From Phallusia mammillata (Eukaryota), in contig OZ281494.1 of NCBI GenBank assembly GCA_965637545.1, forward strand, positions 16,678,001 through 16,742,000: a stretch of 64,000 nt of DNA, in the 5' to 3' direction. Below the pieces are notes generated by a model. It saw only the letters and a program-made list of their open reading frames with translations. It ran no database searches and was not told the DNA's origin. Of this stretch, positions 10,657-13,063 are shown piece by piece. The translations under genes were made by a program, and so were the position numbers. The number at the start of each line of letters is the position of its first letter. Within the stretch, counting starts at the first letter, position 1.

Positions 10657-13063
10657 TTAATGCGCCAGTTGGTTGTAAACAAGGTTTGTGTCCATATGGT
10701 TAAGGCCCTGATAAGAGTTTTCGTTGTTTGACTGATCTTTGAAAACTGGCATTTGGTAAGTGTCATCGATTGGTTGTGTAAACATTTGTGGTGCTCTCTG
10801 GTTCTCCCTAACGGTTTGAGGTTGAGTTGCTTGTCCGCCGCTTGGTGGCTTGTTTTGTTTTGGCGACAAATGCCTCTGCTTTTCACGTCTGTGAGAACAT
10901 TGGAAAAATTTAAACAACATATAACCACTTAGTAAACAAACAGAGGCATGTTGCTATAAAACCGAGATGTTACTAAAATTACTAATATGGTGGAACAACT
11001 TAGATTTTACGTGAGATTCAAGAGAAAAAAAACTGTTTAACCGTAAAACGTGCGTTTACCCAACAAGATAGTAAGGCGGACCGTTTCTTGATTTAAGATT
11101 TAAATATTACGTTTTGTACCATTGAGCACTTACATTGATTTGAATAGTAGTGCTGCTGACAGAATTACACTGATAGCCAGAAGAACTCCTAATATCGCAA
11201 ATGTTCCAGTCATTGGATCACAATCTGTATTCTGGGTTGGTTCTAGAAATAAAAATGTGATAAAACCGGTCATGATAAATAAACAACACAAGCCTCATTG
11301 ACAGATGGTTGCTGTTTTAATTGAACCGGATTTCCGATTAATTTGCCAAATTTCGTTAAAATAACATAACTTCACTGATGACTGCATGAGTAATTTAATT
11401 ACCATTTAGTGTATAATTTTAACGCATTTATGTGCTCTATATACTCATAATTAATAATGCATTTGTGATAATGTAAAAGAATAAAGCCAATAAATGATCT
11501 TGTTAGTGCAACTGGTGACGAGAGATCGGTTGTTGGCTAGTGTAGCCATCGTAAAAACGTAAAAAAATATCCTAGTGTTATTCCCACGCAAGATATTAAC
11601 TGACGAAACTGTACACAATCCATCGTATATGTTGAAGTGAAAAAACTTCTTTAAAGAATAAATAAACTTTTTGATGTTAACTCTAGGTTTTATAGCACAT
11701 TCAGTGTCACAATTATATTTAGCATGGACCGCGAGTGGTTAAAAAAAATTGCATAGGGACCGTTATGACAAAACCACTGAATAAGAGAAACTTACTTGTT
11801 AAGTCTGTCCCTTCGCTCGTTGCGCAAGGAAAGAACGTGTACGTAAAGAATATGAACATAGAACTGCGTGTTTGAATCCTGATATTAGGAGGCCAACGGG
11901 CGCTTGCATTGACCGTCTTGTTGCAAATGTCGGGAATGACTTTGCCTGCTTGACATGCTTTTGAGTTTGCTGGGACGTAAATGCCGCACCACGCATCTGA
12001 TGGCTTATTATACTCTATGTCATTATGTGCCAACACGCTACCTGTGAAGTAAAAATGCTTCCGTTAGGCCGAAGTCTAAAGCACCTTTAAACTTCCGTCT
12101 GATTGAGCGTAGTCATGAATGAACCTATATTACGTAAGTCTGTAGTTGAGTTCCCTCCCCCAACAATGTTTTGACATGTTTGGGATAATTTAATATGTTG
12201 AAAACAGGTTTGCGTCTAACGTTTTTAGACCATTATGTTAAAATTCTAGTAAAAGTACAATGTTAGCTTAAAACAAGTTCTTAACTTCTTACCATCTGGC
12301 AAAAAGACCTGTTTTGTTGGCCTGTAGTTTTTTAAATGAACCACGTTCAGCAACAACATGACATCGCGCCCTTTCGGAGAAATAAGTGTCCATTGATCGT
12401 CTTTGATAGGATTAAAATACGCCGTCCCACTTGTTTTGTTGGTAGTGAGACCATGTACCAGAAAGATCCAAGCACAAGCTGAAAAAGTACAACGTTTTTA
12501 GTGGTATATATTGCAGGAGTTCTAAATAACAAGTTACGGCGACGTTGTGTAAAGAATGTCACCACGTCGTAATATACACGTTAGCTGTACGTGCAGTAGG
12601 TTGTGCAAAATATCGTTATTTTGCATTAAAAAATGGTGCAACTTACATGACCAAAATTGCTTGTCAACTTGAATTTAGCGTAAGTTTTTAAAAAGCAAAC
12701 ATGTCAAAACATTTGTCCGATTTCGTAGATTTTGTAAATGCAAATACGCTTTTAAGTTTACATTTCATGTGATGAAGTCAACTCGAGCTTTTTAACATTT
12801 TTGTGACTGATTGTAAAAAGGGGCAAATCGAAAACCTGTATTGTTCTCGGGTCTATCGTCCGGTCATTTACGTGCACTGTTTGCACCGAAACGTGAGAAA
12901 AGTAAGTGTTCCGCAAGTTTAAGCGCGTAATACCTGTCTGGGGGAATGCCAGCGATCAATTATACTCATTTATTATGCAGAGTTTTGGCGACCAGTTAGA
13001 GTTTATTTATTCATGTTTTTCTTTTTACTTACCAGCATAAACCAGAATGTGCAGAAAAACCAT
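10657..13063 (-). CDS. CUBR4: divergent CUB-like type I receptor with an ITAM-consensus tail
   Basis: Exons 13033-13063 (signal), 12293-12478 (QWTLISPKGRDVMLLLNV...FLPDG), 11796-12041 (WCG...WPP...FTYTFFPC), 11134-11242 (TM FAILGVLLAISVILSAALLF), 10657-10888 (tail TYQMP, ENSYQGL-x8-YNQL). A small extra stalk exon in 11243-11795 cannot be excluded. Confidence 0.8.

Follow-up and report, generated by a model that had tools for sequence, protein, structure and literature searches.

Did this locus of Phallusia mammillata encode an activating receptor that carried its signalling motif in its own cytoplasmic tail, next to paralogs of the inhibitory type? A first-pass annotation had read it in this way from the letters of the window, by which we mean the whole stretch of 64,000 nucleotides that was analysed. 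The answer depended on whether the exon with the motif was real and read in the proposed frame, whether the motif stood out from chance, what the neighbouring genes and the ectodomain were, and which signal such a tail would give. The gene in question is called G4 here.

Gene structure and transcription of G4

G4 was a gene of five exons on the minus strand. Its product of 267 aa had the layout of a type I single-pass membrane protein, with a signal peptide, an ectodomain containing three N-glycosylation sequons, one TM helix, and a cytoplasmic tail of 76 aa. The exons were as follows.

13033..13063, minus strand: exon 1 of G4, carrying the start codon and the signal peptide; joint 12478/13033 in run X1
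12293..12478, minus strand: G4 exon 2, end of the signal peptide and the shortened first half of the predicted CUB domain; spliced in X1
11796..12041, minus strand: G4 exon 3, second half of the predicted degenerate CUB domain, with the family signature C..C..C..WPP..F.Y.F..C; spliced in X1
11134..11242, minus strand: exon 4 of G4, encoding a short stalk followed by an uncharged TM helix (mean hydropathy 2.77); flanking joints in X1 and X2
10657..10888, minus strand: G4 exon 5, cytoplasmic tail of 76 aa and stop codon; X1 contig cover to 10599

Transcription was followed in RNA-type sequencing runs, four of which were examined out of the 15 listed. G4 was present in two of the four (X1 and X2), and X5 and X7 were without G4 cover; such contigs prove presence but not absence, and their depth cannot rank expression. 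Contig 4 of X1 (958 nt; X1 depth 7.45) joined all four introns, each with GT..AG ends, extended to 10599, and had no differing letters in the pieces listed. Although this run was assigned as RNA by guess only, the intron-free joins argued that it was mRNA. Run X2, which came from another study and was made with oligo-dT (depth 4), joined 11242 to 11796 and 10888 to 11134.

The junction 11134/10888 had been singled out in the first-pass annotation as the one to be confirmed, and it was found in both X1 and X2 with GT..AG ends. Since these positions were joined in two unrelated runs, and since the intron phases 2/2 led into the ITAM frame, the frame of the motif was correct. The acceptor at 10888 was seen in RNA and the other two frames of the last exon were out of phase; these frames were therefore rejected, and the concern that the last exon might be read differently was removed.

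An ITAM-consensus motif in the G4 tail

On the minus strand, positions 10722 to 10666 of the window translated to ENSYQGLNHMDTNLVYNQL, followed by AH and a stop codon at 10659-10657.

10666..10722, minus strand: ITAM-consensus motif in G4 exon 5, based on sequence and shuffles; its second half, LVYNQL, is an ITIM-consensus match as well

The motif had the form E-x-x-Y250QGL-x8-Y262NQL with a spacer of eight residues, and it ended two residues before the stop codon. As a sequence match, it satisfied the ITAM consensus (D/E)xxYxx(L/I)x6-8Yxx(L/I) in the form printed in PMC2832619. The claimed match to a canonical ITAM was thus confirmed, with an exact translation in a real, spliced exon. The tail had three tyrosines, namely Y235 (DDTYQMP, a YxxP site), Y250, and Y262. 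Acidic residues were located upstream of both motif tyrosines, with E at -3 of Y250. The remark that YQGL occurs in a CD3-zeta ITAM agreed with a peptide list (10.1101/2020.02.12.945170), where it formed the first half of CD3-zeta ITAM3. Among curated profiles, no Pfam family matched the tail at E limits of 1 or 10, in a search whose filters often lose short motifs, and a PDB sequence search and the ESM Atlas queried with the tail returned no match.

The bare ITAM pattern was common in raw DNA and weak when taken alone; it was the position in a cytoplasmic tail that made this match notable. The six frames of the whole window contained 11 core ITAM matches and three acidic-type matches, of which only one was located in a cytoplasmic tail. 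Of 200,000 shuffles of the 76-aa tail of G4, 0.07% contained the core and 0.007% (14 shuffles) contained the full acidic form. With a match allowed in any of the seven shuffled tails of the window, the corresponding values were 3.2% and 0.36% of 20,000, the G5 tail being mis-framed in this set. It was unlikely that the motif was noise, and its spacing by itself was no proof of an ITAM.

A cluster of six paralogous receptors

G4 belonged to a group of six tandem CUB-type paralogs (G1-G6) that were located on the minus strand at 1456-19209 and had a common exon plan. The other five members were the following.

1456..3898, minus strand: G1, predicted model with Pfam CUB (E 6e-10), TM helix, and a tail that has the ITIM-consensus sequence IHYDYI, a YEKP, and YVEL at its end
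5560..7164, minus strand: G2, predicted model with Pfam CUB (E 4e-5), TM helix, and a tail that has the ITIM-consensus sequence ITYDYV, a YENP, and YVDI at its end
7902..9726, minus strand: G3, the nearest relative of G4 (35% ectodomain identity), with a short tail and one conserved YHN[ILM]; spliced in X1
14662..16204, minus strand: G5, divergent, with no tyrosines in the predicted tail; start and acceptor of exon 3 provisional
16871..19209, minus strand: G6, predicted model with degenerate CUB, TM helix, and a 170-aa tail with YxxP, YxxM, and YxN and no ITAM or ITIM

The four runs examined of 15 showed no RNA contigs over the exons of G1, G2, G5, and G6. The ectodomain of G4 was identical to that of G1 in 23 of 119 columns (19%), to that of G2 in 26 of 120 (22%), and to that of G3 in 45 of 130, and G3, the closest paralog, had no ITIM. 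In the ectodomain tree, the G1/G2-type clade was separate from G4 with support of 99/98. A strict ITAM was present in one of the 12 modelled family tails (G4), the ITIM consensus in five, and a near-ITAM in one (P0007 from Clavelina); the partial relatives P0001, P0002, P0005, P0006, and P0010 were without tails and stood outside this count. Tails of the neighbouring genes carried SH2-type sites (YxN, YxxP, YxxM, and ITIM), and the family appeared to vary its tails on one common scaffold.

The ITIM-bearing paralogs that the first-pass annotation had placed nearby were thus recovered as G1 and G2, whose ITIM-consensus tyrosines were also kept in a second species (see below). Its term "paired family" was only partly justified: clustered paralogs with opposing motifs were indeed present, but their ligand-binding domains were too dissimilar (19-22% identity), and G4 and G1/G2 were not paired receptors in the strict sense. 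The first and the last tyrosine motifs of the G1 and G2 tails (at 1459-1550 and 5563-5650, respectively) were 22-23 residues apart, a spacing that presumably resembles tandem SHP-2 docking sites.

The best 19-residue TM window contained no D, E, K, or R in any of the six models, including G4. Because its TM helix was uncharged and its tail of 76 aa was not short, we rejected a DAP12/FcRgamma-type adaptor-coupled class for G4. The proposal that the ITAM was on the receptor's own tail, rather than on a separate adaptor, was therefore retained since no contact of this type was indicated, but not as a novelty, as such receptors had already been described in ascidians and other invertebrates.

A degenerate CUB ectodomain

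The first-pass annotation had given the gene a CUB label (CUBR4), and the support for this label differed between the members of the family. Exons 2 and 3 of G4, scanned separately with Pfam PF00431, had no CUB match, and neither had the exons of G3 and G6. Pfam CUB matches were obtained for G1 (6e-10), G2 (4e-5), and exon 2 of gene D in the L003 locus of the second species (2e-9). In a profile-profile comparison by hhalign, the alignment of the G3/G4/G6 group with this CUB-positive group spanned the entire domain (probability 98.3, E 2e-14), and G4 scored 99.5 bits on a family profile built without G4.

When 1.84 billion proteins were searched with a profile of six exon-3 sequences, 10 matched with an E of 0.001 or less. 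These were four clusters from Clavelina lepadiformis and Ciona intestinalis, five proteins without a name, and one insect repeat protein (P0008) that was dropped as a false match. The named relatives were LOC143461689 and LOC143462528 in Clavelina and LOC100187535 and LOC144742505 in Ciona (E 2.5e-8 to 2.5e-4), and these names pointed to an ascidian source of the window. They had the same ectodomain family as G4, and the three full-length ones had a TM helix and tyrosine-bearing tails. Unlike G4, none of them had a strict ITAM, and P0003 was nearest to G3 rather than to G4.

The AlphaFold model of the Clavelina relative P0003 had a mean pLDDT of 69, with mostly 80-90 in the ectodomain. Its best structural matches were CUB structures, with the TSG-6 CUB at Z 10.3 (rmsd 2.6, 100 residues aligned), and ranks 1-21 were all chains of CUB-containing proteins. 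Foldseek with P0003 reached a best E of 0.003, with none at E 0.001 and CUB chains still ranked first, and the ESM Atlas queried with the P0003 ectodomain gave CUB clusters at 0.90-0.91, which we took as a lead only. By remote homology, the ectodomain of G4 was predicted to be a degenerate CUB fold, the fold being modelled on the relative P0003. The earlier label could be kept in this sense, on the profile and the fold of a relative, but not on a Pfam match to the G4 exons themselves.

The ectodomain of G4 had four cysteines compared with six to nine in the relatives, a shortened exon 2 without the two cysteines present there in the relatives, and a long branch. The tree of 12 ectodomains was mostly unresolved (one of nine inner branches starred), so orthology was assigned from position and from features in common. 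No orthologue of G4 came out of the word-seeded protein searches, in which G4 exon 3 had 0 hits among 3 candidates and the alignments had 3 among 8000 and 4 among 711; this was weak evidence of absence. Homology of the G4 ITAM to the two tyrosines of the Clavelina P0003 tail or to G3 was unsupported (z -0.06 and 1.7, respectively). The best scores of the G4 tail in 11 comparisons were with gene A of L003 (z 3.2) and P0007 (z 2.6), both too weak for use. The tail of P0007 (the XP_076816847 cluster) contained YESI-x5-YESV, one residue short of the ITAM spacing, and ended in VLYQPI, which fits the ITIM consensus.

Conservation and turnover in a second species

The cluster and its gene order recurred in the metagenome loci L002-L004, which had 41% GC and no blastn match to the window; these contained gene A, then a gene at the G4 position, a G3 orthologue, and a G1/G2 orthologue. 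The G1/G2-type tail in L003 kept three tyrosine motifs, namely ITYDYV/VTYEYI, YExP, and terminal YVxL/I (z 4.4, 7.4), and the distance from the first to the last of them (16421-16540) was 31 residues. The tyrosine of the G3-type YHN[ILM] was conserved in the second species as well (z 11.0), and its score against Clavelina was z 3.6. This conservation of the G1/G2 and G3 tail tyrosines indicated that the tyrosine motifs in the CUB receptor family were under selection.

The gene at the G4 position had the same short, cysteine-free exon 2 as G4 and a part of exon 3. Since the shortened exon 2 was common to both genes, it was old. All three covering contigs (L002, L003, and L004) had a stop codon and a frameshift in exon 2, and their exon 3 was broken; a tail of this gene could not be recognised in L002-L004. 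The counterpart of G4 in the second species was thus a pseudogene, and it was the only counterpart found. Gene loss at the G4 position fitted the birth-and-death evolution of immune clusters. A MITE-like element resembling a repeat of the window was located inside the L003 pseudogene at 8618-8929.

Proposed function of the G4 tail

We gave slightly better than even chances to the possibility that G4 was an activating receptor that recruited a Syk-family kinase through the ITAM of its own tail, by analogy with known receptors. According to this model, the CUB domain of G4 would bind a ligand and the receptor would cluster, a Src-family kinase would phosphorylate Y250 and Y262, and the tandem SH2 domains of ascidian Syk would dock on both phosphotyrosines. 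The YxxP site at Y235 could add a Nck/Crk-type adaptor to the tail. The expected response of blood cells would be phagocytosis or aggregation, modelled on the Halocynthia ITAM receptor. G1 and G2 would be the inhibitory members of the cluster, recruiting SHP via their conserved ITIM-type tyrosines. Expression of Src, SYK, SHP-1, and SHIP has been described in Botryllus (PMC12582321, PMC12065747), and an accession for Ciona SYK is given in PMC13344425. The latter source also describes that SYK of amphioxus binds to an ITAM receptor, phosphorylates it, and can inhibit NF-kB, so Syk binding need not mean activation.

Such suppression of NF-kB by amphioxus SYK (PMC13344425) was one of the points in favour of an inhibitory or dual tail, in which Y262 as an ITIM, alone or together with Y250, would recruit SHP-1/2 or SHIP, or in which a singly phosphorylated ITAM would inhibit. 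LVYNQL fits the ITIM consensus, as had been pointed out from the letters, the best conserved motifs of the family were of the ITIM type, and FcoR receptors of Botryllus are described as switching between ITIM and hemITAM (PMC12582321). However, Y250 was outside any ITIM context, had E at -3, and was 12 residues from Y262, which is the geometry of an ITAM, whereas the ITIM-type pairs of G1 and G2 were 22-23 residues apart. It is common for one half of an ITAM to fit the loose ITIM consensus as well. We considered an inhibitory or dual tail unlikely.

Both motifs also fit YxxPhi, and they could serve as AP-2-type endocytosis or sorting signals of an uptake receptor, with the ITAM spacing being coincidental. 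Under a harder null in which both YxxL blocks were kept intact, the ITAM spacing arose in 8% of shuffles of the whole tail and in up to 15% when the last 40 aa were shuffled, and the ITAM-like motifs of CEACAM proteins may be internalisation signals according to PMC2832619. With the acidic residue at -3 included, however, the same null gave the full ITAM form in 0.9-2.1% of cases, and the SH2-type sites in the neighbouring tails pointed to phosphotyrosine signalling. This explanation seemed rather improbable to us, and sorting and signalling roles of the tail would not be exclusive.

It was least probable that G4 was a decaying duplicate whose motif was a remnant, or matched neutrally, and had no present function: the loss of a cysteine pair, the shortened exon 2, and the long branch could mean decay, the counterpart in the second species was a pseudogene, and G4 was found in two of the four runs at a low contig depth (which cannot rank expression), but all five exons were open, in phase, and spliced with GT..AG introns, the short exon 2 was old, being common to the counterpart, and G4 stayed open while the counterpart broke.

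A broader hypothesis could be put forward, which we favour only tentatively and at less than even chances. Namely, ascidians may have independently built an ITAM/ITIM immune-receptor cluster on a degenerate CUB domain instead of Ig or lectin domains, with a conserved inhibitory member of the G1/G2 type and fast-turnover activating members such as G4, whose own tails would signal through Syk.

Comparison with known receptors

Own-tail ITAMs were known already in sea squirts, and G4 left the knowledge of invertebrate ITAMs unchanged. An ITAM-containing hemocyte glycoprotein of Halocynthia, A74, was reported by Takahashi and co-workers in 1997. The hemocyte receptor of Halocynthia roretzi is described as having two ITAMs and a role in aggregation and phagocytosis (PMC5465252). 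It resembled G4 in being an ascidian membrane receptor with the ITAM in its own chain but had two ITAMs compared with one in G4; it was compared by its review description and may or may not belong to the CUB family. An own-chain ITAM receptor is described in amphioxus as well (PMC13344425).

The Alr genes of Hydractinia provided a parallel to the whole cluster. According to PMC9546547, their tails contain ITAMs in six bona fide genes plus eight putative ones and ITIMs in two tails, and homologues of Syk and SHP are present. Both systems were clusters of single-pass receptors with diverged tails and with the ITAM or ITIM in the own tail. However, the Alr system is cnidarian and linked to allorecognition, and its ectodomains consist of Ig and Fn3 domains as compared with the one degenerate CUB domain predicted for G4. 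The FcoR genes of Botryllus, as described in PMC12582321 and PMC12065747, also form a tunicate cluster with ITIMs and activating-type tyrosine motifs on one scaffold and with copy-number turnover. They differ in their Ig/sushi ectodomains, their length of 520-610 aa, and their hemITAMs, in contrast to the full two-tyrosine ITAM of G4. Membership of G4 in Alr or FcoR was rejected since those are Ig proteins and the ectodomain family of G4 modelled as CUB.

In vertebrates, CEACAM3 and the ITAM-bearing CEACAMs likewise have an ITAM or an ITAM-like motif in their own tail beside paralogs with ITIMs, and they undergo gene birth and death (PMC2832619). The true CEACAM pairs are described there as having very similar ligand-binding domains through gene conversion, unlike G4, which was 19-22% identical to G1 and G2.

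In the literature covered, with subscription papers and supplements outside its scope, we found no CUB-based ITAM/ITIM receptor family and no mention of LOC143461689, LOC143462528, LOC100187535, or LOC144742505. Lists of Ciona ITAM/ITIM genes, such as the 2003 Ciona survey, may already include relatives. The new part was the CUB scaffold of the ITAM/ITIM cluster, and the cluster was real and probably undescribed. If the G4 tail signals through Syk, the sister group of vertebrates would show ITAM/ITIM logic placed on a CUB ectodomain, and this would back an old signalling module with freely exchanged recognition domains. If the interpretation as a CUB cluster is true, this would be a third scaffold for ITAM/ITIM logic in chordates and a candidate locus of non-self recognition in solitary or non-botryllid ascidians. 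The cluster offered small (about 270-370 aa) and testable candidates for the ITAM/ITIM receptors presumed to act in ascidian blood cells, and there were unstudied named relatives in Ciona, a tractable model.

Other features of the window

Outside the CUB cluster, the window contained further receptor-like genes on the minus strand. G7 (20688-22758) was predicted to be a single-pass receptor, and its small, cysteine-rich ectodomain belonged to no Pfam family. Its tail of 351 aa contained a repeated ILYD-type motif and 12 tyrosines, three of which fitted the ITIM consensus. At about 23700-25760 and 27800-29900, there were two receptors, paralogs of each other, in which a fibronectin type II domain was recognised (Pfam E 1e-7); they also had a second cysteine-rich module, a Thr-rich stalk, a TM helix, and short tails. 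Further exons of the fibronectin type II kind were found at 35655, 43234, and 56584 within duplicated DNA. The region 30900-57900 contained large tandem duplications, including a 5-kb pair with 94% identity (32387-37323 and 39984-44906), and also held a repeat unit of roughly 490 bp. On the plus strand, the exons at 58600-64000 belonged to a long protein with spectrin repeats (one ORF matched Pfam Spectrin at E 5e-4), which we would guess to be nesprin-like. Short interspersed repeats were present at 5068-5558, 3003-3345, and 7690-7800, and the first of them had MITE-like terminal inverted repeats and many contigs in the RNA-type runs.
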